64,000 nucleotides of DNA from Planctomycetota bacterium (GTDB lineage: Bacteria > Planctomycetota > UBA1135 > UBA2386). The stretch is from assembly GCA_046290465.1 (NCBI GenBank), contig JBKAGP010000001.1, positions 4,096,001-4,160,000 of the forward strand. Direction: 5' to 3'. The notes beneath the pieces were generated by a model. The model saw nothing but the letters and a program-made list of their open reading frames with translations. It ran no database searches and was not told the DNA's origin. The translations under genes were made by a program, and so were the position numbers. Positions 14,924-35,591 of the stretch are shown piece by piece; position 1 is the stretch's first letter, and every line of letters begins with the position of its first letter.

Positions 14924-16150
14924 TCAGCGACCGCCGTCGCCTTCGCCCTCGGGCAGCCCGAACGAAGCCGGCAGCTCTTCCTTGCCCTTGGTCTGCTCCG
15001 ACCACGGCGCGTTCTTGAGCGTGATCGGGCCGACTTCGCGCAGTTCGTCCGTGCGGCGGTGCTGCACCACCAGCGTGCAGGTGTCTCCGCCGAGTCGCGA
15101 GCTGACCAGCATCTGGAAGTGCGGACCGTTCAGGACGTCGACGCCGTCGACCTTCATGATGACGTCGCCCTTCTTGAGACCGGCTTCCGCGGCTGCGCCC
15201 TCCTTGGGCGTGCCGGCGATCTTGGCGCCGGGTCCGAGGTGCGACGTCGCCAGCTGCACCCCGAGCCAGGCGCGCTGCAGGATGTCGCCTTCCTTCATCC
15301 GTTCGATCAGCGGCTGGATGTCGGCGATCGTCGTCGCGAAGCCGATGCCCGAGTCGTACCACTCGACGCCGGCGTTGCGCCCCGACGGCGACAGCGGCAC
15401 GGCGATGCCGAGCACGCGACCGTGGATGTCGACGACCGCGCCGCCGTAGTTGGCCGGCGAGGTGTAGGCGTCGATCTGCAGCGCGCGTCCGAACAGGCGC
15501 TGCTTCGCACTGACGATGCCGAGGTGCACGGTCGGCTCCTCCTGCGCGAACGTGCGGCCGAGCGCGAAGGCCCATTGTCCGACCTTGACGTCCTTCGGGT
15601 GCACGAACGTCGGCACCGGCAGATCCTCGGCGTCGATCTTGACCAGCGCGATGCCGCGGCTGGTGTCCTCGCCGACGCGCTCCGCGTGGAACGTGCCGAC
15701 CTTTGGCACCGTGATCAGCACGGTCGTCGGATCGAGGTTGAGCGCGAAGCGCGAGATCATGATCCAGCCGTCGGAGGTCAGGATGATGCCCGACGTCTTG
15801 CCCTGCGCCTGCTTGAAGCCGCCGGCGACCAGCGGGAGCTTCTTCTTCTTCTTGTCCTTCTTGTCCTTCTTGTCGTCCTTCTTGTCACCGTCGTCGGGGT
15901 CCCCTTCCGGGTCCTCCTTCTTGGGCTTCGGCTTGGGACGCGGCTTCGGCGGCGCGGGGCCGTCCATCGGTCCGTCCTTGCCCATCAGCCGGCGCGTGCC
16001 GCCGAACGTCTCGACGGTGACCACGAACGGCCCCGCCTTCTTCAGCGCCGCCTGCAGCACCGGCTCGAGCTCGAGGAACTCGTCCAGGTTGCCCTGCTGC
16101 GCGCACAGCGGCAGCGACAGACCCAACAACACGATGGTCGAACGCAGCAT
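14924..16150 (-). CDS. HtrA/trypsin-like + PDZ protein, catalytic residues lost
   Basis: SGIILTSDGWIMISRFAL (no His); SPANYGG in place of NPGNSGG; PDZ; signal peptide. Confidence 0.85.
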   Translation of the reverse strand: MLRSTIVLLGLSLPLCAQQGNLDEFLELEPVLQAALKKAGPFVVTVETFGGTRRLMGKDGPMDGPAPPKPRPKPKPKKEDPEGDPDDGDKKDDKKDKKDKKKKKLPLVAGGFKQAQGKTSGIILTSDGWIMISRFALNLDPTTVLITVPKVGTFHAERVGEDTSRGIALVKIDAEDLPVPTFVHPKDVKVGQWAFALGRTFAQEEPTVHLGIVSAKQRLFGRALQIDAYTSPANYGGAVVDIHGRVLGIAVPLSPSGRNAGVEWYDSGIGFATTIADIQPLIERMKEGDILQRAWLGVQLATSHLGPGAKIAGTPKEGAAAEAGLKKGDVIMKVDGVDVLNGPHFQMLVSSRLGGDTCTLVVQHRRTDELREVGPITLKNAPWSEQTKGKEELPASFGLPEGEGDGGR

Positions 16151-17223
16151 CACTTCTTCGGCTCCTCGGCGAGCGTCATGTCGCCGGTCATCACGCGGGT
16201 GCCGCGCTTCCACATCACCTTGACCGTGTCGCCCGGCTTGTACTTCTCGAGCACGCGACGGAACTCGTTGCAGCTGCGCACCGAGAAGTCGTCGACGCGC
16301 ACGATCATGTCGTCGATACGCAGGCCGAGCTCGCGACCCGGGGACTTGCGCTTGACGCGCTCGACGTAGGCCGGTGGCGACTTGCGGCCGGCGGACTCGA
16401 ACAGCGTGATGCCGGTCCACACCGGCACGACCTCCGCCTCGACCTCGTCGCGCTCCTTGCCGTGCACCATCTGTTCGAGGTAGGGCAGCAGGTCGCGCGA
16501 CGGGATCGCTGCCGACAGCATGGTGTTGGTCTCCTTGCTGTCGAGCAGGCGCATGTTGAGCCCGATCCAGCGACCGTCGAGCGTGAACAGCCCGCCGCCG
16601 TAGTGGCCGGGGTTGTTGCAGGCATCGGTCAGGATGATGTCGCCGTCGTACCTGACGTCAGCCATGCGGTAGCGCAGCGCCGTGTTGGCGGTGCCGACCA
16701 CGACGCCGAACGTCGCGCTGACCTTCTCGGAGAACTCCGCGAGTCGGAAGCAGTTGCCGAGGCTGACGACGAACTGGCCGTTGCGGAACCGCGCCTGCTC
16801 CTCGCTCGGCGGCCACAGCGGCTGCAGCTTGCCGTCGACCTCCTCCGGGTCGATCTTGAGGATCCGTACGCCGAGCTTCTCGTCGGCGGCGAACAGCGTG
16901 GCCTCGTGCACCGAACCGTCGTAGAGCACGACCCGGGTGCGATCCTTCTGCAGCAGGATCTGGTCCAGCGTCAGGATGTGGCCGCGCTCGCTGATAACGA
17001 TGCCGGTCGCGTAGGCCTTGATCGTCGCCAGACCCGACGCGCCGTGGATCTTGACGATGCTCGGCAGCAGCTTGTCGATGGTCTTCTCGACCTGCGTCTT
17101 CGGCTTGCGCTCCGCGAACGAGTAGGCCTTGCCGAAGTCGTTCTTCGCCGCCTTGGGATCCTGCTGCGCTGAGATGGTGGCGGCGAGCGAGGCCGCGAGC
17201 ACGAACGTCAGGGTGCGCATCAT
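16150..17223 (-). CDS. HtrA/trypsin-like + PDZ protein, catalytic residues lost
   Basis: TGIVISERGHILTLDQIL (no catalytic His); NNPGHYGG; PDZ; signal peptide. Confidence 0.85.
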   Translation of the reverse strand: MMRTLTFVLAASLAATISAQQDPKAAKNDFGKAYSFAERKPKTQVEKTIDKLLPSIVKIHGASGLATIKAYATGIVISERGHILTLDQILLQKDRTRVVLYDGSVHEATLFAADEKLGVRILKIDPEEVDGKLQPLWPPSEEQARFRNGQFVVSLGNCFRLAEFSEKVSATFGVVVGTANTALRYRMADVRYDGDIILTDACNNPGHYGGGLFTLDGRWIGLNMRLLDSKETNTMLSAAIPSRDLLPYLEQMVHGKERDEVEAEVVPVWTGITLFESAGRKSPPAYVERVKRKSPGRELGLRIDDMIVRVDDFSVRSCNEFRRVLEKYKPGDTVKVMWKRGTRVMTGDMTLAEEPKK

Positions 17224-19043
17224 TCGTTCCCCCTCTCGAACCACGAGGCCTCGGGCGCACCCGAGGCGCGCTTGCCCGCCGACCAGCCGGTCTCGAGTTC
17301 GCCGTCGGCGACCACGCGCAGCTTGTGGCCGAGCACGTAGTGCGCGACGCGCTTGCGACGCAGCGGGTCGCGGAACACGAACCCCGCCGGCGTGCCGTCC
17401 AGCAGGAACCACGCCTCGCACTCGCCGTCGCCCGGCAGTTCGAAGCGATAGCCTGCCTTGCCGTGCACGTGCACGCCACCGAGCAGCAGCGCGTCCTCCA
17501 GCCGTTCGGCCACGGCGGCGCGCGGCCATAGCAGCGGGTTGCCGACCAGTTCGCGGCGCAGCCGTTCGCGTTCGCCGACGGTCAGGTCACGGGTCTCGCC
17601 GTCGACCCGCGCAAAGCCGCTGTCGGGGCCGGTGCGCACGTAGACGTCGTCGCCGATCTCGAGGCGCAGCTGGTCGCCGAAGGCGACGGCGCGGATCCTG
17701 GTGCCGTCGGGACCGCGCCGCGTCCACTGCACCGCGACCTCCTCGCCGCCACCGTCGCTGCCATCCTCGCTGCCATCCTCGCTGGACGGCCAGCGCGCGA
17801 CGATCTGGTCCTTCGCGATGCGACGATCGATGCGGCTACCGAGGCGCGCGTCGTCGCCGGTGCCGTCGCGGCTCGAACCGGTGTCGAGCATGGTCAACTT
17901 GACGGTGACCTCGCGCTCGTCGCCGAACCCGCCGGACTCGAGCGCCGGGCGGTGGCGCAGCGTCACCCAGGCCCCGGCCGGCAGCACGCCGACCATCGTC
18001 GCCAGCTGGTTGGCCGAACGCACCTCGATGCCGTTGAACTGCGTGATCTCGTCGCCGAGACCGATGCCGGCGGCCGCCGTCACCGAGTCCTTGAACATCT
18101 GCTGCACGAACACACCACGCCGGTGCTCCTTGCCCTCGCGCGAGGTCATGAACCAGGCGCTCATGTCGAGGGTGCCGTGCTCGGCGTGACGACCAGAGAC
18201 CAGGTCCCCGAGGAAGTTGTTGATCTGGTTCGACGCGATCGCAAAGCCGACCCCGACGTTGACGCGGCCGCGGTCGCCGATCGAGATGCGGCCGTTGATG
18301 CCGATGACCTGGCCCTGCTCGTTGAACAGCGGCCCGCCGGAGTTGCCCGGGTTGACCGGCGCGTCGACCTGGATGCAGTCCGGGTAGACGAGCATGCGGT
18401 TGCCCTGGCCTTCCTGGTAGCGGTGCGTGCCCGAGACGATCCCGAACGTCACCGTCGGCGTGAAGTCCGTCGCCAGCAAGAACGGGTTGCCCATCGCGAA
18501 CACGGTCTCGCCGACCAGCACCGCGTCGCTGTCGCCGAGTTCGCAGTAGGGCCAGGTCTGGCCCTCCTCCTTGGGCAGCAGGCGGACGACGGCGAGGTCG
18601 CTGCCGGGATCGATGCCCAGCACCACGCCTTCGTAGAGGCGGCCGTCGGGCAGCCCGATCTTCTTGTTCTTGTAGTGCGCCTTGCCGCTCGGCTGGTGCT
18701 CGCGCTGCCAGCGCTCCTTCCACTTCGCGACGAACTCCGCCTCCTCGTCACTGCCGCCGGGCGTCTTGCTGCGCCACTCCTCGAGCACCTCTGCCGGCGG
18801 CTCCGGCGGCTCGGGCAGCTTGTAGTCCTTGTCCGGCTGGCCGACGACGTGGTAGTTGGTCAGCAGGAAGCCGGCGGGGTCGATGATCACGCCGCTGCCG
18901 CCGCCGGGCGAGTCCATCGACATGACCGAGCAGACGGCCTGGGCGCAGCGGTCGATCACGGCGACGCGGCGAGCCTCGCTCGCGACCACGGCGTCGATCG
19001 GGTCCTGCATCGCGCAGGATGCGAGTACGGCGAGCAACATCAT
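17220..19043 (-). CDS. HtrA/DegP-like serine protease + PDZ + C-terminal extension; possible lipoprotein
   Basis: Intact triad TNYHVV, SDLAVV, NPGNSGG; LASC near the N-terminus. Confidence 0.9.
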   Translation of the reverse strand: MMLLAVLASCAMQDPIDAVVASEARRVAVIDRCAQAVCSVMSMDSPGGGSGVIIDPAGFLLTNYHVVGQPDKDYKLPEPPEPPAEVLEEWRSKTPGGSDEEAEFVAKWKERWQREHQPSGKAHYKNKKIGLPDGRLYEGVVLGIDPGSDLAVVRLLPKEEGQTWPYCELGDSDAVLVGETVFAMGNPFLLATDFTPTVTFGIVSGTHRYQEGQGNRMLVYPDCIQVDAPVNPGNSGGPLFNEQGQVIGINGRISIGDRGRVNVGVGFAIASNQINNFLGDLVSGRHAEHGTLDMSAWFMTSREGKEHRRGVFVQQMFKDSVTAAAGIGLGDEITQFNGIEVRSANQLATMVGVLPAGAWVTLRHRPALESGGFGDEREVTVKLTMLDTGSSRDGTGDDARLGSRIDRRIAKDQIVARWPSSEDGSEDGSDGGGEEVAVQWTRRGPDGTRIRAVAFGDQLRLEIGDDVYVRTGPDSGFARVDGETRDLTVGERERLRRELVGNPLLWPRAAVAERLEDALLLGGVHVHGKAGYRFELPGDGECEAWFLLDGTPAGFVFRDPLRRKRVAHYVLGHKLRVVADGELETGWSAGKRASGAPEASWFERGNE

Positions 19044-19095: not shown

Positions 19096-20313
19096 CTACC
19101 TCTGCACGACGCGGGCGTTCGCGAACGCGCAGAAGTCGCCGAGGTCGTAGTTCTTGCCGAAGTCGACCTCGATGGTGAGGGTCTTGGCCTTGTCGAGCGC
19201 GACGCGCAGCGCTTCGGGCTTCTGTTCGCGAAGCATCGGCTCGGACTCGAACACCTGCTTGCCGTCGACGTGCACGCGGAAGATCGCGTGCGCCGCCGGC
19301 CCGCCGCGGTCGTCGATGCCGATCATCGCCTCGAACACGTCGAAGCGGCCGTCGAGCGCGTAGGTCAGCCGCGTGTGCGGCACCAGGCCGATCCCACGTT
19401 CGAACTTCTGGCCGGCGAGCTCGAAGCCGGGGCCGGCGACCGAGCGGTTGTTGTGCCAGGGCCAGGTACGGTCGAAGGCCGGCGTCTGCTCGACCTTCGG
19501 CTGCAGGTCGGCGAGCCAGACGAGCTTGTCGCTCGACACCTCGAGCTTGTGCAGGCGGCTGATCGGCACGTCGAGCACGCAGCCTTCGTCCAGGCGACAG
19601 CGCACGCGGTCGGTCATGCTCAGCAGCTTGCCCTCGATGCGCTCGCCGGTCGTCAAGGCGACGACCGTGCGCGGGCGCGGCTGGCGGTTCGGTGCAAAGC
19701 CGGTGTTGGTCCCGAAGACGATCCCGGCGAGGCCGTCGAGCTCGAACTCGTACTCGTCCCCGCGCAGCAGGAAGTCGATCGCCTTCTCGCGCATCGCCGT
19801 CACCGTCACCTGCGAGCGCTGGGCCTGCCCGTCGCGCACGACGTAGATCAGGTCCTCGTTGGCGGGCGGCTCGGCCAGGTCCTGGTTGAACAGGGTCGGC
19901 TGCGGGCGCATCAGGCCGCCGTGACGCACCGCGCGCACGGTGCTGATCGGCAGCTCGAGCTTGGCGGCGCACGGCAGCTGGACGATCACCATCGACGGCT
20001 TGCCGTCGCCACCGGCGCGGCCGCTCAGCCGCTTGGCCGGCAGTTCGGTGCCGGAGCGCAGCCAGACGCGGTGTTCGACGCGAACGTTGCGGGCGCTGGC
20101 GCCCTCCCGTTCGAACGTCACCAGCTCGGCGACGTCGATGACGGTCTCGCCATCGTCACCGCGAACGGTCACCTTGCCGTCCTCGGCGACCGTGACCGCG
20201 CCGGTCAGCGCACGACCGTCGATCGTGCGGACCGTGCCGGTTGCCTGTGCGGGCGCCGCTGCGCAGAGCAGCGCGCCGCACGCGGCGAGAAGTACCGTCG
20301 GAAAGGCGTTCAC
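19096..20313 (-). CDS. Secreted NPCBM/NEW2 domain protein
   Basis: Signal peptide; C-terminal FERGIG...LTYAL...FEAMIGIDD...VDFG...FANAR. Confidence 0.82.
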   Translation of the reverse strand: MNAFPTVLLAACGALLCAAAPAQATGTVRTIDGRALTGAVTVAEDGKVTVRGDDGETVIDVAELVTFEREGASARNVRVEHRVWLRSGTELPAKRLSGRAGGDGKPSMVIVQLPCAAKLELPISTVRAVRHGGLMRPQPTLFNQDLAEPPANEDLIYVVRDGQAQRSQVTVTAMREKAIDFLLRGDEYEFELDGLAGIVFGTNTGFAPNRQPRPRTVVALTTGERIEGKLLSMTDRVRCRLDEGCVLDVPISRLHKLEVSSDKLVWLADLQPKVEQTPAFDRTWPWHNNRSVAGPGFELAGQKFERGIGLVPHTRLTYALDGRFDVFEAMIGIDDRGGPAAHAIFRVHVDGKQVFESEPMLREQKPEALRVALDKAKTLTIEVDFGKNYDLGDFCAFANARVVQR

Positions 20314-21362
20314 TTGCGGTCGGCCTTACCGAGCTTCTTGTAGTACTCCTCGAGCATCTTCTGGTACTGCGGCGGCATCGTGTTCTGCACGTCCGCCATG
20401 ATCTTCTTGCGCTCGCTGTCGCGCATGTCGCCCCAGCGGTCGGCCAGCGACGGGCGCTTCTTCAGATCGCCGACGTTGCCTTCGCCGCCCGGCAGCGCGC
20501 TGTTGGCGGCCGGGTTGCTCGACGGACCGTTGCCCGAAGGCGCGCCCGAGGACTGGTTCTCCATCTCTTCGAACATCTCGATGAGCTCCTCGAGCTCCTC
20601 GATGTAGGTCTCCTGGTCGAGCTGCAGGGGCTTGTCGGTCTTGTTCTTGCCGAGGTCGCGCTCGGTCTTCTTCATGCCGTCCGCGAGCATGTGCAGGCGG
20701 CTCTCGCGCTGGCGCTCGAGCTCGAGCAGACGCTGGTGGGCGGCCGAACGCAGGCGTTCGCTGGCGTTGGGGAACCAGGCCAGGAAGGCGCGGAAGCGCG
20801 GGATCGCGGCGTCGATCATCGGGATCTCCGCCAGCGACTGCGCATAGAAGTAGGCCGCCTCGCCGTCGAGCGGCGTGCAGTTGAGGTTGTGCGTCAGGTA
20901 CTCGTTGAGCACCTCGATCGCGCGCTCCGGGTCGTTGCTGTCGAGGAACAGCCGCGCCAGGTGGTAGCGCACGTGCGCCTGCAGGACCGGCGACTTGGTG
21001 TTCACCAGCACCTGCGTGAGCAGCAACGCGGCCTTCGGGTCGCGGTCGTAGGCCGCGGTGACTGCTTCGTCGAGCTTCGGGAACACCTTGCGCATCAGGT
21101 CGTCGGCGGCGCGCGCGGCGCCGATCTCCTCGACCTCCTCCGCGAACGTCTTGACCTGCAGCTCGGTACCGCCCAGCTCGCGCGCGGCCTTCTCGAACCG
21201 GGCCTGATCGAAGGGCAGGAACGGGTTCTGCACCTGGATCGGCGGGACCGCCGGGAGGTGGGCCTCCGGACGGATGCCCTCGCCTGGCAGCTCGATCTGG
21301 GCGCGCACGCCGGCGGCGAGCGCACCCAGCGCGAGCAGCGCGAGGATGGACGGTGACTTCAT
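20310..21362 (-). CDS. Secreted TPR-like helical protein with Gly/Ser-rich linker and conserved-looking C-tail
   Basis: Signal peptide; YHLARLF and YFYAQSL TPR-like segments; tail WGDMRDSERKK...PPQYQKMLEEYYKKL. Confidence 0.7.
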   Translation of the reverse strand: MKSPSILALLALGALAAGVRAQIELPGEGIRPEAHLPAVPPIQVQNPFLPFDQARFEKAARELGGTELQVKTFAEEVEEIGAARAADDLMRKVFPKLDEAVTAAYDRDPKAALLLTQVLVNTKSPVLQAHVRYHLARLFLDSNDPERAIEVLNEYLTHNLNCTPLDGEAAYFYAQSLAEIPMIDAAIPRFRAFLAWFPNASERLRSAAHQRLLELERQRESRLHMLADGMKKTERDLGKNKTDKPLQLDQETYIEELEELIEMFEEMENQSSGAPSGNGPSSNPAANSALPGGEGNVGDLKKRPSLADRWGDMRDSERKKIMADVQNTMPPQYQKMLEEYYKKLGKADRK

Positions 21363-23392
21363 CAGTTGTCTCCTTCGTCTTCCTTGCCGAGCTTCTCGGC
21401 GAGGCGGCGCATGAGTTCCTTCACGCGACCCTGCTTCTTGGACACCTTGTCATAGTCCTCCTGCGTGGGCTTCTCGTCGCCCTTCAGCGCGTCGAGATCC
21501 TTGGTCTTCTTGTTCACGCGTTCTTGGAGGAACTTCAACATCTTGAGCTCTGCCGACACGGGCACGAGCGGCGGTTGCTTACCGCTTCAAGTACCCGTTC
21601 AACCCCCGCCTTCCTTCATCTCGATGGTGCGGCGCAGGGCGTTGATCAGCATCTCGAGGAGGTCCTCGATGTCCTTCTGGGCGCGGTTCATCCGCGGACC
21701 CGTTTCGTGCTTGCGCAGGCCGGCGGCGACATCGTGCAGCTCGTCGCGGAGCTGCTCGACCATCGGCGGGAACACCGCGGTCGTGCCGTCCTCGTCGAGC
21801 AGCTTCAGCGCGTCGATCGTCTCGAGCTCGAGTTCGGCCTCGGCTCCGGCGAGCGACTCGATCTTGCTGGCGAGCGCGGTCGGCAGCTGACCGTCGGCGG
21901 TCAGGATGTTCTGGCGCGAGCCATCGACCGTCTTGGTCATGATGGTCAGCTCACGCTGGCGCGCGAGCATCGCCGTGAAGCGCTCCTCGAGCGCGCGCAG
22001 GACCTCGTCCTGTAGCTGCTGACGCAGCTGCGCGAGGGCCTCTTCGAGCGCCTTCTTGGCGGCCTCGAGGTCTTCCTTGGCGTCCTGCTGCTTCTGCTTG
22101 GCCGGCTTGTACTCCTTGAGTTGACCGGCAGCGGCGCGCTGCTTCGGGACGGCCTGCTGGACCTTGTTCTTGCCCGGCGTCGGCTCGCCCTCGCCGCCTT
22201 CCTCACCCTGCTCCGCCTTCTCCATGTCCTTGGCGAGGGTGTCGGTGGCGTTCTTGGTCTTCTCCTGGTTCTTGGCCATCTGCTCGAACGGCAGCTTGAG
22301 CAGCTCGCGCTTGGCCTCCTCGGCCATCTCGTCGAGCTCCTTCATCGTCTGCTTGAGCGCCTCGATGGCCTGGTCCTGGTCCTTGAGCGACGGCTCGGGC
22401 TTCTTGTCGCCGAGCTGCTCCTGGGCCTTGCCCATCGACTTGGCGGCCTTGCTGGCGCTGCCGCTCGACTTGCCGGACGAAGGCGAACCCTCACTCGGCT
22501 TGGACTCGGACGGCTCGCTCGGCTTGGACTCCGACGGCTTCGACTCCGACGGCTTCGACTCCGAAGGCTTCGCCTCACCGGGCTTGGCTTCCCCGGGCTT
22601 GGCCTCACCGGGCTTCGCCTCGGCAGCCTTCGCCGCCTTGGCCGCCTCGGCGGCGGCCTTCTTGGCCTCGGCGGCCAACGCATCCGCCTTCAGCTCGGCG
22701 TCCTTCTTGTCGAGGTCGCGCAGGTCCTTGGACAACTCGTCGGTCGCGTCCTTGAGCTCACCCTCCTTCTTCTCGAGCGGCTCGGTCGCACCGGCGGCCG
22801 CATCGAGCGGGAGTTGGTTGGTCTCGTCGCGCAGGGCCTGCTGCTGGTTGAGCAGGTCCTCGGCGCGCTGACGCTGGGCCTCGATGTTCTTCAGGTGCTT
22901 CTCGAGGGCCTCGGCGCGCGCCGAGTCCTCCTTCTCCTGCTGCTGCTCCTTGGCCAGCTCGTCGACCCGGTTCTTGAAGCCCTCGAGCTGCTCGATGCGC
23001 TCGAGCAGCTTGCGCAGGTCCCCGTTGCGATTCTGCAGCAGTTCGAGCAGCGAGCGGAGGTCCTCACGAAGCTTGCCCATCAGCACCAGCGACTCGTCCC
23101 AACGCTCCTGCTTGAGCAGGGTGCCGGCCTTGTCGAGGCGCGAGTGGAGCTTCTTCTCCTGTACGAAGCGAAGGCCTGCGCCGAGCAGCTTGCTCTCCTC
23201 CGGCTCGTCCTTCTGCAGGACGACCATCAGCTTCTGCATGCGGTCGGTCAGGTCCTTGAACTTGCCCTCGGCAAGCTCCTGCTTGCTCTGGGCTGCGGCC
23301 GGCGGGTCCTGCTGCGCCTGCAGCGTCGACGCCATCGGCGTCATCGCTAGCAGCAGCAAGGCCGCCAACACGGCGATACCTCGTGAAATCAT
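21362..23392 (-). CDS. Exported coiled-coil (DUF4175-like) protein with two in-frame UGA codons; candidate UxxxU selenoprotein of about 676 aa
   Basis: Track ORFs 21599..23398 and 21362..21565 share a frame: GGC GGG GGT TGA ACG GGT ACT TGA AGC GGT AAG CAA CCG CCG CTC GTG CCC GTG TCG GCA GAG CTC AAG ATG; UGAs at 21601-21599 and 21589-21587. Confidence 0.72.
21547..21598 (-). promoter_or_regulatory. Putative bacterial SECIS-like hairpins 3' of the two UGA codons
   Basis: Hairpin 1: ACGGGUAC/GUGCCCGU plus GCGGU-AAGCA-ACCGC. Hairpin 2: GCUC(G)UGCC-CGUGUC-GGCAGAGC. Confidence 0.5.
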
Positions 23393-23478
23393 GGGCACCT
23401 CAAAGGGTTGGCCCCGCTGGTGGGGCGTACGGGGCTTGGATGGGGTCTCGGACGAATGTCTCTTCGGCGTGGCTCCGA

Positions 23479-25725
23479 CTACTTCTTCTTCTTCTTGAAG
23501 AGGTTGTCCTCGCGATCCTTGATCCGGCGTTTGACGTCCTGGATCGCGTCACTCTCCAGGTTAATCACATTCCTGAGTTCTTCGAGTAGGGCAGCCAGGG
23601 TCTCGGCCTGCTCCATCGCCTTGATGATCTCGGCGAGACGGCGGCTGATATCCCGATAACCCTCTACGGCTTCCTTCCTTACGGCTTCATCACTGGAGCG
23701 GACGAAGTCGTTGACCAACCTTGCGGTGGCAGGGAAAGCCTCCTTGGCCAGCTGCTCGAGCGGCGCCGTGATCACGGCCTCGATCTGCCGGACCTTGTTC
23801 TCCTCGATCAGGCGGTTGTTCTCGAGCTCCCACAGGATGCGCTGGTAGGCCTCGCCGACGAAGCGCACGCGGCGGCCCAGCGCCTGCTGGCGGCGGGCGA
23901 ACACGCGGAACTTCGCGGTCGCCTCCTTCTGCCGGTCGCCGGCTTCCTTGGGATTGACGGTCTCGGACAGCTCGATCGTCGACGAGGCCTCCTGGTCCGC
24001 GATCTGCTGCAGCTCGTTGCGCTGCTCGACCTGTCGGCGGCGCAGCTCCTCGATCAGCTGGTCGCGCGGCACGATGCGGAACGTCATCGTCTCGCCGTAG
24101 CCCTCGTGCGGATCGCCGGGCCCGAAGTTGTCCTTCGCCGAGTAGCGCACCGAGAACAGCATGCCCGGCCGGATCGGGTTCTCCGGCGAGTTCTGGTCGC
24201 GCACCTTGTTCCAGGTGAGCAGGTCGACGCTGGCCTCCGCCTCGTAGCGCAGCGCGCTGCGCTCGAGCTGCACGTCGTAGATCGCCTTGGCGTCGGTCCA
24301 CGGCATCTCCGGCAGCGGCGTGCTGTTCTCGCCGCGACCCGGCGCCTGGTCCTCCTGGTAGCGCATCGACGCCATCACCTCGCGCAGACCGAAGTCGTCG
24401 CGCACGCGCAGCGCACCGGGGATGCGCGCCTCGTAGGTGATCGACGAGCCGATGCCGCGCAGACGGAAGTCGACGGTCGGCGACTTGTCCTCGCCGACGC
24501 GCAGCAGCAGCTTGGGCGGCGTACCGGCGCCGAGGCTGTCGTGGTCGATGACGTCGACGATCATCAGGCCCGACTCCTTGGGACGGAACTCGCCGGCGAA
24601 CGTCTGCTGGTCGTCGGCGACGGTCAGCGGGACCTTCTTGTCGTTGCCGAACAGCAGGAACGCCTGCTGCAGCGGCTTGCGGCTCTTGCCCGACACGCTC
24701 AGCATCGCGCCCGACGGCAGCCGCAGCTCGCCCTCGGTCGGCGGCACGTCGAACGGCTCGCGCTCCATGTATTCGGGCAGCGTGACGCGGATGGCGAGGT
24801 CGCCGACGGTCGGCCGCTCGACGATGCGCACCTTCAGCGTCGCCGGCAGCGAGTCGCCGCCCTGCACGCTGAGGTCGAGGTCGCTGACGACCGAGTCGAT
24901 GGTCCAGGTGAACTCGTCGTCGCCGGTCAGGCTCATCGGCTCGGTGCCGACGTCGCCGCCGACGAACTCGTAGTCGACGAACAGCTGGTCCGGCACCGGA
25001 CCGTCGACCTGCACGCGCACGGTCAGCGCGTCCCCCTGCGGCAGCCGCACCTCGCCCTCGCCGTCGACGAACGTCAAGGTCGTGTAGCGCGGCCAGTCGG
25101 TGTTGCTGAGGAACACGTTGCGCGCCGCCCAGATGCCGAGCGACTGGTGGTCGATGCCGGCCCAGGTGCCGAAGAACGCCAGCATCGCGAAGATGCCGAG
25201 GGCGAACTTGCGCACGCGCGCGGCGTCGATCGCCTGCGCGAACGGCACCGCCTGCAGGCGGTCCCGCAGGTTCTGCACGACCGCGGACTTCATCTCGCGC
25301 GACTCGATCGAGCGCGACTCGCGGGCGAGGTCCTGGTCGAACTGCAGCGAACTGATCAGCTGCTGGTCGAGCTGCGGGCACCTTCGTTCGATCGCCAGGG
25401 CGATCTCCTCGTCGCTCAGCTGCACGCGGATCGGTTGCAGCAGACGCCTCAGCACGATGCGCACGACGACGACCGCGAAGCTGCCCAGCAGCACCGCGCG
25501 GAACGCCCACTCGAGCCGCAGGAAGCGGTCGGTCAACAGCGTCGGCAGCGCGTACGCGATCAGCAGCAGCGCGATGACGCCGATGGTCTCGATGTAGAGG
25601 CCCTTGCGGACGCGGCTCTTCTGCTGCTGCAGACGTTCGCGCGCGGCCTGCAGCTCTTGCCCCAGCGTCGGCTGGCTCGGCTGCGGCGCAGGCGCCGGCT
25701 GCTCGGGGATGGTCGAGGTGCTCAT
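23479..25725 (-). CDS. DUF4175-like membrane protein (N-terminal TMs, Ig-like middle, coiled-coil C-terminus)
   Basis: Three TMs; ALAIERRCPQLDQQLISSLQF; WPRYTTL; RDDFGL; ATGA coupling. Confidence 0.75.
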   Translation of the reverse strand: MSTSTIPEQPAPAPQPSQPTLGQELQAARERLQQQKSRVRKGLYIETIGVIALLLIAYALPTLLTDRFLRLEWAFRAVLLGSFAVVVVRIVLRRLLQPIRVQLSDEEIALAIERRCPQLDQQLISSLQFDQDLARESRSIESREMKSAVVQNLRDRLQAVPFAQAIDAARVRKFALGIFAMLAFFGTWAGIDHQSLGIWAARNVFLSNTDWPRYTTLTFVDGEGEVRLPQGDALTVRVQVDGPVPDQLFVDYEFVGGDVGTEPMSLTGDDEFTWTIDSVVSDLDLSVQGGDSLPATLKVRIVERPTVGDLAIRVTLPEYMEREPFDVPPTEGELRLPSGAMLSVSGKSRKPLQQAFLLFGNDKKVPLTVADDQQTFAGEFRPKESGLMIVDVIDHDSLGAGTPPKLLLRVGEDKSPTVDFRLRGIGSSITYEARIPGALRVRDDFGLREVMASMRYQEDQAPGRGENSTPLPEMPWTDAKAIYDVQLERSALRYEAEASVDLLTWNKVRDQNSPENPIRPGMLFSVRYSAKDNFGPGDPHEGYGETMTFRIVPRDQLIEELRRRQVEQRNELQQIADQEASSTIELSETVNPKEAGDRQKEATAKFRVFARRQQALGRRVRFVGEAYQRILWELENNRLIEENKVRQIEAVITAPLEQLAKEAFPATARLVNDFVRSSDEAVRKEAVEGYRDISRRLAEIIKAMEQAETLAALLEELRNVINLESDAIQDVKRRIKDREDNLFKKKKK

Positions 25726-28226
25726 AGCAGGTTGAAGCGCTTGCGCAGGATCCACTCGATCGACAGCAGCACGAGCACGAGCGTGATCGTCGGCCAGCCG
25801 TCCCAGATGGCGTGCGGGGTGCGGAAGGTGTCGGTCGCCGAACGCGACGGGATGTCGTCGAGCGCCTTGAGCAGCTCGGCGGGGGTGTCGAACAGCACGC
25901 CGCCGTTGGCGCCGGCGATCGCGGCGAGTTCGCTGCGTTCCATCGGCCCTTGCGACTCGATCTGCGCGGCGACCACCTGGAACGAGATCTCGACGGCCTT
26001 GCCGATCTTCTCGACCGGCCGCACGCGGTAGGTGCCGAGCTGGGTCGGCCGGTAGCGCAGCGAGTAGCTGCCGGGCAGCGCCTCGATCGGCACCAGCTCG
26101 ATGTTCTCGGCGGCCTCGCCCTCACGTTCGACCGAGACGACGAACGACTCGGCGATCAGCGGCTGCAGCACCTCGTCCTTGACCTCCGCGACCAGCTCGA
26201 TGGCGTCGCCGAGGTCGATCTTGTCGTCGCTGCCGAGCAGGCGCAGGCGGCTGTTGCCGGCCTGCAGTCGCCCCTCGAACAGGTAGCGGATGCCGTTGAC
26301 CCAGAACCGGTTGTAGGCGTCCTCGTAGAGCGCTCGCCAGCGGTAGGTCTCGTCGGTGCCGAGGAACAGCACGCGGCCGGCACCGAGCTTCTGGATCGCG
26401 ATGACCGGCATGTCCTTGCCGCCGACGCGGAACTCGGGGCTCGGGTGGCCGGCGAGCGACGTCGCGATCGGCTTGAGGCCCGACACCGGGAACCAGAAGT
26501 GGAAGCCCGGGATGCGCTCCCAGAGCAGGTTGCTGGTGTCCTTGTCGTCGTGCAGGCGCATCACCTTGGAGCCGATGCCGTCCATGCCGTCGGGCGTGAC
26601 GCGGTAGCGCCACGGCCGCGGGAACGCCTTGCCGAGGCCGAGCATCTTGCGCTCGGCGAACTCGACGTTGGGCATGATCGGCAGCAGGTCCGCGATCGGC
26701 TGCGTGTTGGCCGTCGGCCGCAGCGCGTCGAGCGTGTGCTGCTCGCCAGCGACCCACCAGAAGCCGCAGCCGCCCTCGACGATGTGCTTGCTGAGGTTGT
26801 CGCAGAAGCGGCGCGTGAGCTTCTCCGGATCCGGATCGATCATCACGACGACGTCGTACGGATCGAACTCGGCGCGCTCCTCGGGCAGGCGCGTGATGCG
26901 CACCTCCTCGTTGCCCTCCTGCGGGAACTTCTCGTCGGCGCTCTGCAGCCAGCAGGAGACGTCGATGGTCTTGTCGCGAATCAGCAGGTTGCGCAGGATC
27001 TGGAACTCGTGGCTCGAGCTGCCGGCGAGCAGCAGCATGCGCAGCCGTTCGCCGAGCACCTCGAGCGCGGCGGTCTTGGTGTGGCGCTCGGCGACCATCG
27101 GCTCGCCGTCCGGCGGCACGATCTCGGTGCGGTAGACGAACCGACCGGGCGCCTCGCTGGTGAGGTCCTTCCAGTTGATCGTCGCTTCCTGGCTCTGGCC
27201 GATCTGCACCTGCTGCGTGCGCACGACGGTCTCGGCGCCCTGCTCGTCGGCGCGGATCAGCCGCGCGGTGACCGCGACGCCGTCGTAGCCCTGCGAGGTG
27301 ACGGTCGCCTTCATCTCGTAGGGGTCGCGCTGGAACACCTTCGACGGCGCTTCCATGCGGGCCAGCGTGACCGTCTGGGTCTCGGACGGGTCGCCGACGC
27401 CGAGCACGAACGTGTGCGGGATCTTGCGCTGCTCGAGCAGGCGCGCGATCTCGGCGCCCTGCGGACCGGCCGTGCGGCGGCCGTCGGTGACGAACACGAC
27501 GGCGGCGATCTCGGCCGGGCGGCTCTTGTCGAGCGCGGTGCGCAGCGCGCCGCCGAGGTTGCTGGAGCGGCCGTCGGCGACCAGCTTGTCGAGATCGAGC
27601 ACCGGCACGGGCTCCTTCTCGTCCGGGTCCTTCGGCAGCGGTTCGCCGTCGGGGCCGAGCTTGGGCGGCGGCGGCGGCACGACCGGCAGCTCGCCGATGG
27701 TGCCGTCGAAGCCGTAGAGCTGCACGCGGTTCTTGGCGGCGAGCTTCTGCACCAGCGCCTGCTCGTCCTTGGCCAGCAGCGCCTTGACGAGGTCGAGGCG
27801 GGTGACCGTCGCCGGATCGTCGGCGCCGGCTTCGGTCCAGCCGACCTTGGCGCGCTGCACCTCGTCGCGGCGCCACGCATCGATGTGCGTCATCGACTGC
27901 GACGTGTCGACCAGCAGGATCGTGTGGCCTTCGCGGACCTCGCGCTTGACCGAGACCAGGTTGGGCTCGAGCAGCAGCAGGATCACGGCGAGCACCGCGA
28001 GCGTGCGCAGCGAACCGAGCACCAGCCGCTGCCAGACCTTCAGGTTCTTGCCGTCACGTCGGTAGAGGAAGCCGATCAGGATCACGGCGACCGCCATGCC
28101 CATCAGCACGAGCATGCCGAGGCCACCGGTCGGGAAGTTGGCGAACTCGAACTGCAGCTCGGAGCCGGGTTCGACCTCGATCCCGCGCCACTGCGCCAGC
28201 CATCGCAAGAAATCGTCCATCGTCAA
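25722..28226 (-). CDS. Membrane-anchored VWA domain protein with a glutamine-amidotransferase-like (DUF1355-type) region
   Basis: MIDAS DTSQSM and VTDG; GAGRVLFLGTDETYRWR; C-terminal TM ..EWILRKRFNLL. Confidence 0.82.
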   Translation of the reverse strand: MTMDDFLRWLAQWRGIEVEPGSELQFEFANFPTGGLGMLVLMGMAVAVILIGFLYRRDGKNLKVWQRLVLGSLRTLAVLAVILLLLEPNLVSVKREVREGHTILLVDTSQSMTHIDAWRRDEVQRAKVGWTEAGADDPATVTRLDLVKALLAKDEQALVQKLAAKNRVQLYGFDGTIGELPVVPPPPPKLGPDGEPLPKDPDEKEPVPVLDLDKLVADGRSSNLGGALRTALDKSRPAEIAAVVFVTDGRRTAGPQGAEIARLLEQRKIPHTFVLGVGDPSETQTVTLARMEAPSKVFQRDPYEMKATVTSQGYDGVAVTARLIRADEQGAETVVRTQQVQIGQSQEATINWKDLTSEAPGRFVYRTEIVPPDGEPMVAERHTKTAALEVLGERLRMLLLAGSSSHEFQILRNLLIRDKTIDVSCWLQSADEKFPQEGNEEVRITRLPEERAEFDPYDVVVMIDPDPEKLTRRFCDNLSKHIVEGGCGFWWVAGEQHTLDALRPTANTQPIADLLPIMPNVEFAERKMLGLGKAFPRPWRYRVTPDGMDGIGSKVMRLHDDKDTSNLLWERIPGFHFWFPVSGLKPIATSLAGHPSPEFRVGGKDMPVIAIQKLGAGRVLFLGTDETYRWRALYEDAYNRFWVNGIRYLFEGRLQAGNSRLRLLGSDDKIDLGDAIELVAEVKDEVLQPLIAESFVVSVEREGEAAENIELVPIEALPGSYSLRYRPTQLGTYRVRPVEKIGKAVEISFQVVAAQIESQGPMERSELAAIAGANGGVLFDTPAELLKALDDIPSRSATDTFRTPHAIWDGWPTITLVLVLLSIEWILRKRFNLL

Positions 28227-28233
28227 TCACCGC

Positions 28234-30561
28234 CTAGCGACGGCCGAACCTCCATGCGAGCAGCGACTCGATCAGCAGCCCCGCGAGCAGCAGCGCCGCC
28301 AGCAGCGGCCACGCCTCGCCCTCGGCGGCGGCCGCGCCGACGCCGGAGTCGTCCCGCACGAACGTGACCAGGTCGTGCACGTTGCTCGGGTACATCTTCT
28401 TGAAGCTCGCCTCGTCGAACGAGACCAGCCGGCCTTCGTCGATCGGGCCGTTGCGCGCGATCATGCGCTTCTCGGCGACGCCGTCGTGGCGCTGCAGGTC
28501 GATCTCGTAGGCGCCGCAGTGCGACAGTTCACGCAGGTCGACCAGCACCTCGAGCATCGGGTTGTCGGCCGGCTTCTGGTCGCCGTTCTGGTCGCCCCCA
28601 TTCTGGTCACCACCGTTGCCGGCTGCGTTGCCGGTGTTGGCATTGCCGGTGTTGGCATTGCCGGCGTTGGCATTGCCATCGCCTTCGCCCGCACCCGCGG
28701 CCGCCTCCGGCTTCGGCGCGACCGCGGTGAACGTGCGCTCGTCCTCGCCGGTCATCGCGCGCAGCGTGACGTCGGGACGGTAGAGGCCGGGATCGATGAG
28801 CTGACGCCAGACCCCGTCGGTGCCGAGGTTGTTGCGGCTGGGGTCGTCGCGCCGCGCCGCAAAGTGGTGCAGCTGGTGGGTCACGACCAGGAACAGGTCG
28901 GTGCTCGGCAGGTTGCACCAGAAGCGGTCGGCGGTGATCGCGAACAGCGCGACCTCGCCGCCCTTGCCGCCGAACGAACGCGTCGTCAGCATCGGCGGAC
29001 CGTCGGCGTTGCGGACCCGCGCGACGATGGCGGCCTCGTGGCCTTCGGGCTCTTCGAGCGTCAGCCAGCGCTTGACCTGCACCCAGTTGCCCAGCACCAG
29101 CTGGAACAGCTCGGCCACGCCGTCGCACATCGGATGCTCCGTCGACGCCAGGAAGGCCGGCTCGGGACGATCGGGATCGCCGTCGATCTCGCCGATCGGC
29201 AGCGGCAGCGGGCCCTGACCGTCGCGCCACAGCAGTTCGTTGTAGCGCGGCGCGTCGACCAGCGAGCCGACCGTGATCGCCAGGCCCCCGCCCGACATCA
29301 CGAACGCCTCGAGCCGCTCTGCGGCTTCCTTGGTCGGCGCCTGCACGTTGCAGAGCCAGACCATGTCGAACGCGCCGAGGTTGACCTCGTCGAAGCCCGA
29401 CTCGGTCACCACCTGCGCCTCGATGCCGGACTCCGGCACGTCCAGGGTGGCCTGCAGGAAGAACGTCTCGCCATCGTCCTCGTCGGGCTGGCCGTCGACC
29501 AGCAGCACGCGGCTCTTCTCGCGGACCTGCAGCGCCAGCGTGCGCCGGTCGTCGAACGGGAACGTGCCACCGGGCTCGAGCGTCGCCTCGACGCGGTGCG
29601 CGCCGGCGGCGTGGAACGTGTAGTCGAACGGCACCGTGACGCGTTCGCCGGGGGCGAGCTGCGGCACGTCCTGGTTGACGCTGGTCTGGCCGTCGACCTC
29701 GATCGCGACCGTCGTCGGCGCCGTCGGGTCGAGCCCGAAGTTCTTGATGTCGATGCCGAGCGTGACCGGCACCGCGGCGATCGCCAGCCGGTCCTGCAGC
29801 TTGATCTCGACGACCGCGAGGTTGTCGTGCTGCCCGCCGACGTGCAGCACGGTGACGTGCTCGCTGTCCTTGTCGAGCGAGCCGAGCCCCTTCATCAGCG
29901 CCGGCCGCGGCTTGTCGTCGGTCGTCGACCAGTCCCACGAACGGCGGTCGCCGATGACGTAGTACTCGGTGCGCGCGGCGTCCTTGACCTCCTTGCTGCG
30001 CTCGACGGCCTTCTGCATCGCCTGGCCGAGGTCGGCCGAGAGGTCGCTGACGACCATCTCCTTGAGCGCGGTGCCGGCGGTGCGGCCGAAGTTGCTGCCG
30101 ATGCGCTGGGGGGTCAGCGCCCATTTGTCCGGCGCGCTGGTGCGCACGATCGAGAACAGATCGCCGCCGCGACGCTGCGCCAGGTCGTCGGCCAGCTGCC
30201 GCGCCTTGTCCTGCGCCTTCTCGAACAGGTTCGAGCTGCCGCTGCGCTGCGTCATCGACGCGCTGTCGTCGAGGATCACCACGTGGTGGGTGCGCGAGCC
30301 GAGCAGCGCGCCGCCGCCGAGCTGCGGGCGGCTGACCAGCGACACCAGCAGCAGCACCGCCAGCACGCGCAGCAGCAGCACCAGCCACTGCTCCATGCGC
30401 AGGCGCTTGCGGTTGCGCTTCATCGCCTTGAGCAGGAACTCCATCGCCGCCCACGGCACCTTCTTGAACCGGCGCCGGTTCAGGATGTGGATGATGATCG
30501 GCACGGCCGCCAACGGCAGCGCCCACAACAGCAGCGGATTGAGGAAGGCCAATCCGATCAT
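28234..30561 (-). CDS. BatA (aerotolerance N-terminal) + VWA domain protein
   Basis: FLNPLLLWALPLAAVPIIIHILNRRR..VPWAAMEFL; MIDAS DDSASM; C-terminal TM. Confidence 0.88.
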   Translation of the reverse strand: MIGLAFLNPLLLWALPLAAVPIIIHILNRRRFKKVPWAAMEFLLKAMKRNRKRLRMEQWLVLLLRVLAVLLLVSLVSRPQLGGGALLGSRTHHVVILDDSASMTQRSGSSNLFEKAQDKARQLADDLAQRRGGDLFSIVRTSAPDKWALTPQRIGSNFGRTAGTALKEMVVSDLSADLGQAMQKAVERSKEVKDAARTEYYVIGDRRSWDWSTTDDKPRPALMKGLGSLDKDSEHVTVLHVGGQHDNLAVVEIKLQDRLAIAAVPVTLGIDIKNFGLDPTAPTTVAIEVDGQTSVNQDVPQLAPGERVTVPFDYTFHAAGAHRVEATLEPGGTFPFDDRRTLALQVREKSRVLLVDGQPDEDDGETFFLQATLDVPESGIEAQVVTESGFDEVNLGAFDMVWLCNVQAPTKEAAERLEAFVMSGGGLAITVGSLVDAPRYNELLWRDGQGPLPLPIGEIDGDPDRPEPAFLASTEHPMCDGVAELFQLVLGNWVQVKRWLTLEEPEGHEAAIVARVRNADGPPMLTTRSFGGKGGEVALFAITADRFWCNLPSTDLFLVVTHQLHHFAARRDDPSRNNLGTDGVWRQLIDPGLYRPDVTLRAMTGEDERTFTAVAPKPEAAAGAGEGDGNANAGNANTGNANTGNAAGNGGDQNGGDQNGDQKPADNPMLEVLVDLRELSHCGAYEIDLQRHDGVAEKRMIARNGPIDEGRLVSFDEASFKKMYPSNVHDLVTFVRDDSGVGAAAAEGEAWPLLAALLLAGLLIESLLAWRFGRR

Positions 30562-30597: not shown

Positions 30598-31638
30598 TCA
30601 GCGCTGGTAGATGGGGACCAGCGCGTGGGGGAGTTGCAGGATGGTGGTGGCGACCGCGGTGCCGTAGACCGCACCGACGTTGTCGCCGCGCCAGCTACCG
30701 TCCTTGCGTTGTTGCGCGAGCAGGTACTTGCATACCTGCCGGTAGTACGTGTCCCAGTCCTCGCCGCCGCGCTGGTAGAGCGCCTGCGACCAGTAGAGGT
30801 GCGTGTAGTAGTGGTGGCCGGTCGTGTCGACCGAGACCTTCAGGTGCTTCTTGCAGAACTGCACCGCCTTGTCGACGAACGGCTGGTCGTCGTAGACGCC
30901 GGCGTTGTAGAGCACCGCCACGCCCGCCGCGGTGATCGCCGGCTGGCTGTTGGAGCCGCGCATCGCGAGCTTGTAGCAGATGCCGCCGTCGGCGTTCTGG
31001 CAGCGCTTGATGTAGTCGACCGCCTTGTCGATCGTCTTCTTGTCGCACAGGATCCCGGCCATCTTGCAGGCGCGCAGGGCCTGCACCTGCGTGACGGTGA
31101 CGCTGCCTTCGTCGTCGTTGGAGTCGGGCGTGTAGATCCAGCCGCCGGCCGACGACTGCGCCGCGGCGATCAGGTCCTCGGCCTTGTCGAGCGCGCGCTT
31201 CAGCCGCCGCTGGGTGCGCAGGTCCTGCTCCATGCCGTAGACCGACGCCAGGAACAGCGTGGCGAAGCCGTGGCCGTACATGCCGTGGTGCTCCTGGCGG
31301 CCGAGCGACAGGTAGCCGGTCTGCGGGTCGGACTTCTTCAGCAGGTAGCCGACCGCGCCACGAACCTCGCGCCAATGACGGCCGCGGGTCGGCGTCGAGC
31401 CGCTCGCGAGGAACGCCATCCCGGCGAGCCCGGTGATCGCGACCGGGTAGGTGCCGTAGCCGCCGGCGTTGCGCCAGCTGCCGTCGTTGGCCTGGTTGTT
31501 CGCCAGCCATGCGAGCCCCCGGTCGATCGCAGCCTGCACGTCGGCAGGCACCGCGCCCGACGAACGCACAGGCTCCTGCGCCAGCAGACACAACGGCAGC
31601 AGCAGCGCAGCGCCGATCGATCGGAACGGGTGGGGCAC
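30598..31638 (-). CDS. Secreted prenyltransferase/squalene-oxidase repeat protein (paralog 2)
   Basis: GLAWLANNQANDGSW, QSSAGGWIY, CQNADGG, QRKDGSW QW-like repeats; MYGHGFATLFLA; ends LPHALVPIYQR. Confidence 0.85.
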   Translation of the reverse strand: MPHPFRSIGAALLLPLCLLAQEPVRSSGAVPADVQAAIDRGLAWLANNQANDGSWRNAGGYGTYPVAITGLAGMAFLASGSTPTRGRHWREVRGAVGYLLKKSDPQTGYLSLGRQEHHGMYGHGFATLFLASVYGMEQDLRTQRRLKRALDKAEDLIAAAQSSAGGWIYTPDSNDDEGSVTVTQVQALRACKMAGILCDKKTIDKAVDYIKRCQNADGGICYKLAMRGSNSQPAITAAGVAVLYNAGVYDDQPFVDKAVQFCKKHLKVSVDTTGHHYYTHLYWSQALYQRGGEDWDTYYRQVCKYLLAQQRKDGSWRGDNVGAVYGTAVATTILQLPHALVPIYQR

Positions 31639-35424: not shown

Positions 35425-35591
35425 TGGCTTCGTTCCTTGAGGGGTGCAGATCCGATCGGGGTCCGGGGGACGGGTCCGAACGGCGGCAGCGCGAGGAGGG
35501 TTCCCTCGGACTCTACGTCCTGTGGCAATCGACGGCGAGGCCCCCCAACCACTTCCCACCGCCATAACTCCGTTTGCCGGGAATCCGTCCT

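Follow-up and report, generated by a model that had tools for sequence, protein, structure and literature searches.

A very probable new family of bacterial selenoproteins in Planctomycetota, cut short in public annotations at in-frame UGA codons

When a reading frame stops at a UGA and then runs on unbroken beyond it, does the codon end the gene or does it encode selenocysteine (Sec)? This question is raised twice, 12 nucleotides (nt) apart, by a minus-strand gene at positions 21362..23392 of the window, the stretch of 64,000 nt analysed here, which comes from a Planctomycetota bacterium (NCBI GenBank assembly GCA_046290465.1, contig JBKAGP010000001.1, positions 4,096,001 to 4,160,000 of the forward strand). 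The gene, which is split or shortened by public gene callers, probably belongs to a Bat-like envelope operon and encodes an all-helical protein for export, whose disordered, Gly-rich loop holds two Sec residues at a distance of four positions, as judged from structure prediction and gene context. Comparison with relatives makes it very likely that the protein is a selenoprotein and, with slightly more reserve, that this is one gene in which both internal UGAs are decoded as Sec by the genome's own SelA, SelB, SelD and tRNA-Sec. The protein very probably represents a new family of bacterial selenoproteins that is cut short in public annotations.

The interrupted frame and its orthologues

The gene forms a single frame of 676 codons plus a stop, running on the minus strand from the ATG at 23392 to 21362 and interrupted solely by two TGAs, which we term UGA1 (21599..21601, minus strand; Sec598) and UGA2 (21587..21589, minus strand; Sec602). 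Across the loop the minus-strand codons are GAA GGC GGG GGT TGA ACG GGT ACT TGA AGC GGT AAG CAA CCG CCG CTC GTG. The 676-residue read-through product contains ...KEGGG-U-TGT-U-SGKQPPLVPVSAELK..., with U denoting Sec, and its C-terminal part reads ...LINALRRTIEMKEGGG-U-TGT-U-SGKQPPLVPVSAELKMLKFLQERVNKKTK...GDN. A preliminary description of this DNA had proposed one frame interrupted by two UGAs without a frameshift, and a final stop overlapping the ATG of the next gene. Both points hold, the frame being open to the TGA at 21364-21362, which is overlapped by the ATG (21362-21360) of the downstream tetratricopeptide repeat (TPR) gene to give TGATG; the one correction is that the true terminator is a tandem TGA TGA (21359..21364, minus strand). 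Calling open reading frames (ORFs) under genetic code table 11 yields a 599-residue ORF (21599..23398), starting at a GTG two codons 5′ of the ATG at 23392, and a 67-residue ORF (21362..21565), which also starts at a GTG. TGA is the commonest ordinary stop, closing 11 of the 15 window ORFs checked, those of LemA and DapF among them, and therefore the code is not reassigned, as had been argued. Given that the window is 69% G+C, 75 open codons past a stop are unremarkable alone, and the case for recoding rests on comparison with relatives.

Orthologues were searched for with the last 207 residues of the protein, its stops read through. An orthologue is present in 46 of 61 related genomes and, at E ≤ 1e-20, in 87 of 91 genomes of the same family; the 64 relatives from the genome collection are bins of uncultured Planctomycetota. 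The loop was read in 90 orthologues, of which 87 belong to a single Planctomycetota family and three to a sister family within its order. Two in-frame TGAs occur in 14 of these loops and one in 39, giving 53 Sec forms that align with 27 Cys-only forms, and the other 10 loops contain neither residue. The patterns are UxxC (16 orthologues), UxxxU (11), CxC (9), CxxU (9), CU (8), C (7), CxxC (6), U (6), CxxxC (3), CCxC (2), UxxxxU (2), UxxxxxU (1) and none (10), the vicinal C-U dyad appearing as G-C-U-x-G in 8 of the 90. At the loop position of UGA1, 47 aligned orthologue sequences have a TGA, and Cys-only forms have Cys in or near it; at UGA2, CxxxC forms (GGQCKGQCNGK) align with UxxxU. The window's genus carries UTGTU, and thus UGA2, in 11 of 13 orthologues and UTGC or UTSC in the other two. 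Among 29 metagenome loci, 27 have one or more TGAs in the loop; 10 of them have two and so retain UGA2. Homologues never show a systematic Trp, Arg or Gly at the UGA sites; they show Cys instead. The UxxxU pair of the preliminary description is supported for the window but is not a fixed motif, as the spacing, number and position of Sec and Cys vary widely.

In all 90 orthologues the frame is continuous past the loop into PPLVPxSAELK and two further helices; the number and position of the TGAs differ, and the frame is never broken. An alignment of the window protein with 45 full-length Cys forms places many invariant family columns beyond residue 602 (P607, L609, P611, S613, A614, E615, L616, K617, Q623, N627, T630 ... 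K667), and the C-terminal region past UGA2 is among the most conserved parts of the protein. The expectation that relatives would combine a TGA or Cys at the loop positions with a continuous C-terminus is thus borne out. Among the best 120 protein-database matches, 59 are full-length and carry a loop Cys, and 58 end with ...KEGG[G/C/H], precisely at the TGA position; the public records among these 120 are called hypothetical or given spurious coiled-coil names.

A tree of the 90 C-terminal regions, built with the loop columns removed and by a quick search that left many forks weakly supported, requires at least 11 switches between Sec and no Sec and at least five changes for the double-Sec state. 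The double-Sec forms fall into three groups, which are separate, well-supported genera with the spacings UTGTU, UTGSGU and USTGGTU. Because these groups sit in separate genera and differ in spacing, the tree argues for an independent origin of the double-Sec state in each of the three.

The genome also carries the decoding machinery, selA, selB, selD and tRNA-Sec all being present where the preliminary description had proposed to look for them. The tRNA-Sec scores 72.8 bits and is called tRNA-SeC(tca) by ARAGORN, SelA and SelD are both encoded, and the SelB winged-helix domain lies in a 679-codon frame. SelD is itself Sec-containing, with an in-frame TGA in ...SSAGUAAK..., and its gene adjoins selA outside the window (genome coordinates G000:C1:1309619-1311717; loci L009 and L011). 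The selD gene was considered as a source of the lineage's pattern for the selenocysteine insertion sequence (SECIS) and was dropped, because no sufficiently clear fold followed its UGA. No Sec-type FdhA was found in the genome. Among the relatives, 60 of 61 have a SelA, which suggests Sec use throughout the order and left no contrast to draw between Sec use and the presence of the machinery. Base-call errors had been named as a concern, and the same TGAs recur in independent assemblies and in three independent runs: contigs of these runs, which come from three studies, match the window without a difference across both TGAs, and an RNA-library contig of a relative (29 differences) spans both TGAs and keeps them.

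Candidate SECIS hairpins and rival readings of the UGAs

SECIS-like stem-loops, candidates by their fold, have their bases 12-17 nt after each UGA, and the first of them shows synonymous covariation. Hairpin 1 (21571..21585, minus strand), the candidate SECIS for UGA1, has a GCGGU/ACCGC stem and an AAGCA loop over Gly/Ser/Lys/Pro codons, with its stem base 13 nt and its loop 18 nt after UGA1. In minimum-free-energy folds it is extended (21558..21598, minus strand) by an outer stem in which ACGGGUAC (21598-21591) pairs with GUGCCCGU (21565-21558). UGA2 lies inside the internal loop of this extended form, and the extension overlaps and competes with hairpin 2. In the 47 aligned Sec forms, the six-pair stem and two outer pairs of hairpin 1 are 87.9% paired compared with 37-69% for slid partners, and the pairing or covariation score is reached by none of 500 shuffles. 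Pair 18-30 is U-A in 24 distinct sequences and C-G in 12, through the synonymous codon pairs GGU..CCA and GGC..CCG (AGU/AGC in the window's genus). As this pair joins the third positions of Gly/Ser and Pro codons, the covariation is not explained by the protein. RNAalifold recovers the same core, and inside the double-Sec genus the stem varies by compensatory synonymous changes (GCGGU/ACCGC, GUGGC/GCCAC and GCGGG/CCCGC). Window energies, scored for 77 of the 90 sequences, average -13.9 kcal/mol at hairpin 1 in 31 proximal-Sec-only forms, whose loops are GGUCA or GGUCC, -9.6 kcal/mol in 14 double-Sec forms and -8.3 kcal/mol in 28 Sec-free forms. The strongest hairpin 1 of all belongs to L028 and L076, single-Cys orthologues of genus g7 (GGECQGGGGQPP) without a UGA, which may be recent Sec-to-Cys converts or may carry a pre-adapted SECIS.

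Hairpin 2 (21547..21569, minus strand), the candidate SECIS for UGA2, pairs GCUC-G-UGCC with GGCA-GAGC around a CGUGUC loop over the L-V-P-V-S-A-E-L codons, and its base lies 17 nt after UGA2 when the fold is taken from UGA2 onward. A mere 6 nt separate UGA2 from the hairpin 1 loop, too short a distance for hairpin 1 to serve it; in the third double-Sec group (USTGGTU), UGA2 lies within the hairpin 1 loop itself. Hairpin 2 or an equivalent, at -11.8 kcal/mol or below, is present in all 16 sequences with Sec 2-5 residues before Pro-Pro, which span five genera. The two orthologues whose sole Sec is at the distal position, L053 and L068, both have hairpin 2, and their hairpin 1 is weak in L053 (-3.6 kcal/mol) but not in L068 (-10.9 kcal/mol). 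The mean hairpin 2 energy is -5.5 kcal/mol in proximal-Sec-only forms and -8.2 kcal/mol in Sec-free forms. As a synonymous control we took 40 distinct rows that all encode the identical peptide PLVPVSAEL. The 10 distal-Sec rows, with just two RNA versions among them, all reach -11 kcal/mol or below, compared with 5 of the 22 rows with proximal Sec alone and none of 8 Sec-free rows; the remaining 25 rows are 25 different synonymous versions. Conserved degenerate codons vary at 4 of 15 positions in codons +1 to +19 after UGA1 versus 74 of 92 elsewhere among 11 congeners, a drop in synonymous variation with a Fisher p of 7e-5 for sequences that are kin. A third hairpin, GAGCUCAAGAUGUUGAAGUUC, with its loop about 44 nt after UGA2, was rejected as the SECIS of UGA2 because AAG>CGA breaks it in 5 of 11 double-Sec congeners, and an Rfam search of 21300-21700 returned chance-level matches only (E ≥ 2).

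From these folds and their conservation, an arrangement with one SECIS hairpin per UGA is reasonably likely. In RNA free of ribosomes, hairpin 2 and the 3′ arm of extended hairpin 1 share nucleotides. Once a ribosome stands on UGA1, it would occupy the 5′ arm and open the extension, so that the two small hairpins would lie next to each other, with UGA1 decoded via hairpin 1 and UGA2 via hairpin 2. A variant of the same Sec reading, in which a single SECIS (hairpin 2 alone or extended hairpin 1) serves both UGAs, draws on the GU in the hairpin 2 loop, which the hairpin 1 loop of double-Sec forms lacks, and on the distance from UGA1 to the hairpin 2 loop, which by hand count is near-constant at about 37-38 nt in three independent double-Sec lineages. 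Multi-Sec bacterial proteins are also catalogued (PMC13188914). We regard this variant as unlikely, however, as the hairpin 1 stem is maintained by compensatory changes within the double-Sec genus, proximal-only forms have hairpin 1 and mostly no hairpin 2, and the distal-only L053 and L068 have hairpin 2, with the uneven hairpin 1 energies given above.

A second alternative retains read-through and dispenses with Sec, such that the hairpins would stimulate decoding of the UGAs by a near-cognate tRNA for an amino acid such as Trp, Cys or Arg. In general, read-through of a leaky UGA can be stimulated by a hairpin 3′ of it, and the case for selenium in the protein is an indirect one. This alternative is nonetheless very unlikely when set against the Cys of the homologues, the Sec machinery across the relatives and a hairpin spacing of 12-17 nt that fits a bacterial SECIS.

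Still less probable is that the UGAs are real stops, with a 597-residue protein followed by a 67-codon frame that is either a small gene of its own or not translated. This is the very split obtained by table-11 ORF calling, public records with a TGA at the loop truncate there, and TGA is the usual stop in the genome. However, the downstream frame is continuous and rich in invariant residues across the orthologues, the Cys-only homologues are single ORFs, and the TGAs vary in number and position whereas the frame never does. In addition, the GTG of the small ORF is simply the Val codon of PPLVPV and by eye has no Shine-Dalgarno-like sequence before it, as the preliminary description had noted, whereas both neighbouring ATGs do have one (GAGG 7 nt before the ATG at 23392 and AAGGAG before that of the next gene). 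That description had also named a C-terminal piece encoded as a separate gene in another frame as a sign of real stops, and no such relative was found. A decaying pseudogene or assembly-error TGAs, for which nothing speaks beyond the two stops themselves, can be practically dismissed given the same codons in 11 of 13 congeneric assemblies, 10 of 29 metagenome loci and three independent runs, the lack of frameshifts, and the strong protein and synonymous constraint around the stops.

Several observations weigh against Sec decoding by paired hairpins, or limit how far it can be taken. The case for translation past the UGAs and for selenium in the protein is indirect, and the sole RNA evidence is the contig from the relative's oligo-dT metatranscriptome, which may contain DNA and cannot prove transcription. 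Two consecutive recoding events may be inefficient. At hairpin 1, part of the G-G/C-C complementarity follows of necessity from the Gly (GGN) and Pro (CCN) codons, only two pairs are changed on both sides, a number matched by 263 of 500 shuffles, and the two Cys-only forms fold more strongly there (-20 kcal/mol). The double-Sec hairpin 1 loops (AAGCA and similar) also lack the GGUC-type loop of single-Sec forms, which makes SelB binding at them uncertain. At hairpin 2, the five proximal-only rows that have it are close kin of double-Sec forms with the very same RNA, and this kinship indicates that inheritance accounts for part of the pattern; a hairpin-2-like fold at -10.2 kcal/mol or below also occurs in 10 of 28 Sec-free forms. 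The 10 of 90 orthologues without Cys or Sec indicate that the chalcogen is not essential to the core role of the family and that the scaffold works without it. Finally, a redox role, metal binding and cross-linking would all fit the computed results.

The probable exported protein and its envelope operon

The AlphaFold2 model, built from 46 sequences, is all-helical with a mean predicted local distance difference test (pLDDT) score of 78.7, and disorder is predicted for the N-terminal 30 residues, residues 263-306 and the Sec loop at 597-609. This loop has a pLDDT below 50 and lies between predicted helices 566-594 and 610-635. The 74 residues after UGA2 (21365..21586, minus strand), which hold many of the invariant family columns, are predicted to form helices 610-635 and 644-672. 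At the other end, the exported, signal-peptide-bearing nature of the protein, as first described, agrees with a probable Sec-type export signal peptide (23315..23392, minus strand; MISRGIAVLAALLLLAMTPMASTLQA|QQ, the cleavage site placed by eye), for which the model predicts a helix at 3-15 and then disorder to residue 30. Residues ~259-306 (22475-22618, minus strand) consist of tandem peptide repeats, AKPGE three times and then SESKP four to five times, in a Lys/Pro/Ser/Glu region with a pLDDT below 50, which in the model looks like a flexible spacer joining two helical halves.

Searches gave this protein no usable name. It has no Pfam match, including to DUF4175 at E up to 1, and NCBIfam returned 0 families at E up to 0.01. 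Neither a sequence profile search of the PDB nor Foldseek against the PDB, with vinculin as best match (E 0.038), named it. With a natural Cys-form homologue as query, the ESM Atlas returned unnamed Planctomycetota clusters only, one of which has DUF4175 on 13% of its members. Of 46 Cys-form homologues, four align with the DUF4175 profile (PF13779) over its C-terminal portion at E ~1e-4 and 17-21 bits, which is under the Pfam gathering cut-off of 27.3 bits and does not place the family in DUF4175. The two resemble each other as long, low-complexity helical envelope proteins.

The loop could serve as a reactive periplasmic chalcogen site, acting as a reversible diselenide or selenenylsulfide redox switch or scavenger, or as a soft-metal ligand. 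A redox role, rather than a metal or structural one, is our tentative preference, at somewhat less than even confidence. The loop is Gly-rich and predicted to be disordered, and its Cys/Sec residues vary in number (0-3) and spacing (vicinal to five apart), which suits a flexible redox arm or a ligand for soft metals better than a rigid catalytic CxxC. Failed Sec insertion would yield a 597-residue product without the most conserved C-terminal helices, and selenium supply could thus gate the full-length form.

The gene is placed in a minus-strand cluster of envelope genes. Immediately downstream and translationally coupled is a gene for an exported TPR protein of 350 amino acids (20310..21362, minus strand), with synteny kept in 28 of 30 loci and the remaining two cut by contig ends. 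It is followed by an NPCBM-domain gene (19096-20313, minus strand) and by two HtrA-like trypsin/PDZ genes (16150-19043, minus strand) that close the cluster. Upstream, the cluster continues over 23479..30561 with a 758-residue protein (23479-25755, minus strand) that has N-terminal hydrophobic helices near residues 55-100 and no family match, an 834-residue protein of unknown family (25722-28226, minus strand), and a membrane protein (28234-30561, minus strand) combining BatA_N/TIGR02226 (PF07584 at 1.3e-18, TIGR02226 at 2.9e-20), a weak VWA_2 match and CARDB. The 758-residue protein has a helical C-terminus ending in KKKKK. We have the impression, and only that, that this protein and the selenoprotein resemble a DUF4175-type protein, with its N-terminal membrane anchor and long helical tail, split in two genes. 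Just upstream of the BatA-like gene lie a squalene-hopene-cyclase/prenyltransferase-like alpha-toroid protein (30598-31638, minus strand) and a 960-residue TPR and PQQ-like beta-propeller protein (32683-35565, minus strand), which may be part of the same envelope cluster.

Bat (aerotolerance) and MoxR-associated VWA membrane operons are typified by BatA-E of Bacteroides. Like these, the cluster has a BatA-type, double-transmembrane VWA protein, encoded two genes upstream of the selenoprotein gene, and a TPR protein directly after it. Unlike these, it has no MoxR in the window, none of the genome's 10 AAA_3 matches falling there and the nearest of the 8 over the Pfam cut-off lying ~30 kb from the selenoprotein gene, and it adds NPCBM and HtrA-like genes. 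No DUF58/MoxR domain was found in the 21 ORFs scanned, with no search aimed at DUF58 alone. We know of no Bat protein that is a selenoprotein.

A broader scenario, which we put forward as possible though doubtful, would join these observations. The Gly-rich/Pro-Pro loop and LVPxSAEL may act as a built-in SECIS pair, whose self-complementary codons (GGN...CCN, GUGCC...GGC) would let Sec appear, move and double repeatedly. The diselenide-capable loop would then be the selenium-dependent redox arm of a Bat-like periplasmic complex, with selenium supply deciding between the truncated 597-residue and full-length forms.

Comparison with known systems

A 2026 review tabulates 119 prokaryotic selenoprotein families and subfamilies by its own count, nearly all of which have NCBIfam or Pfam models (PMC13188914). 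Its Table 1 lists as multi-Sec families a Prx-like UxxU family, the metal-binding NF041115 (UxxU), an FmdB-family UxxU protein, TsoB (NF045694; UxxxxU) and MbdU (PMC13188914). Judged by the family descriptions, the table has no entry for a helical envelope protein or a UxxxU motif (PMC13188914). No description of the family was found in the literature searched, passages of PMC4807772 included. The preliminary description had not recognised this family as a known selenoprotein, and its absence from the review's table and from NCBIfam agrees with that view. The catalogued multi-Sec families share with the present one two Sec a few residues apart at a presumed redox or metal site (PMC13188914). 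They show no sequence relation to it, and here the spacing varies by lineage (UxxxU, UxxxxU and UxxxxxU).

If the Sec reading is correct, it adds to the prokaryotic selenoproteome a family missed by homology-based catalogues and NCBI models. Two features would set it apart, namely SECIS hairpins arranged in tandem to serve two UGAs spaced by 12 nt, and an unusually fluid placement of Sec and Cys. The protein would also be unusual among selenoproteins as an exported helical scaffold with Sec in a disordered loop, rather than a thioredoxin-fold enzyme. The family would offer a natural system for studying how two such closely spaced UGAs are decoded and how a SECIS originates from coding sequence, and it would connect the Bat-like envelope modules of Planctomycetota, of which little is understood, with selenium.

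The textbook selenoprotein gene is E. coli fdhF, which is decoded via a SelB-bound SECIS hairpin just 3′ of its UGA. The present gene resembles it in having an in-frame UGA, Cys homologues, a coding-sequence hairpin 12-17 nt downstream and a genome with selA, selB, selD and tRNA-Sec. It differs in having two UGAs with two adjacent hairpins, and its product is predicted to be an all-helical exported protein with Sec in a disordered loop, neither enzyme-like nor of thioredoxin fold. Mammalian thioredoxin reductase carries a flexible Gly-Cys-Sec-Gly redox tail, and selenoprotein L forms a diselenide in a UxxU motif. Without homology to either, the present family would be similar by analogy in placing a Cys/Sec or Sec/Sec pair in a flexible, Gly-rich segment, and its vicinal C-U forms recall the reductase tail; here, however, the pair would sit in an internal loop of a periplasmic helical protein.

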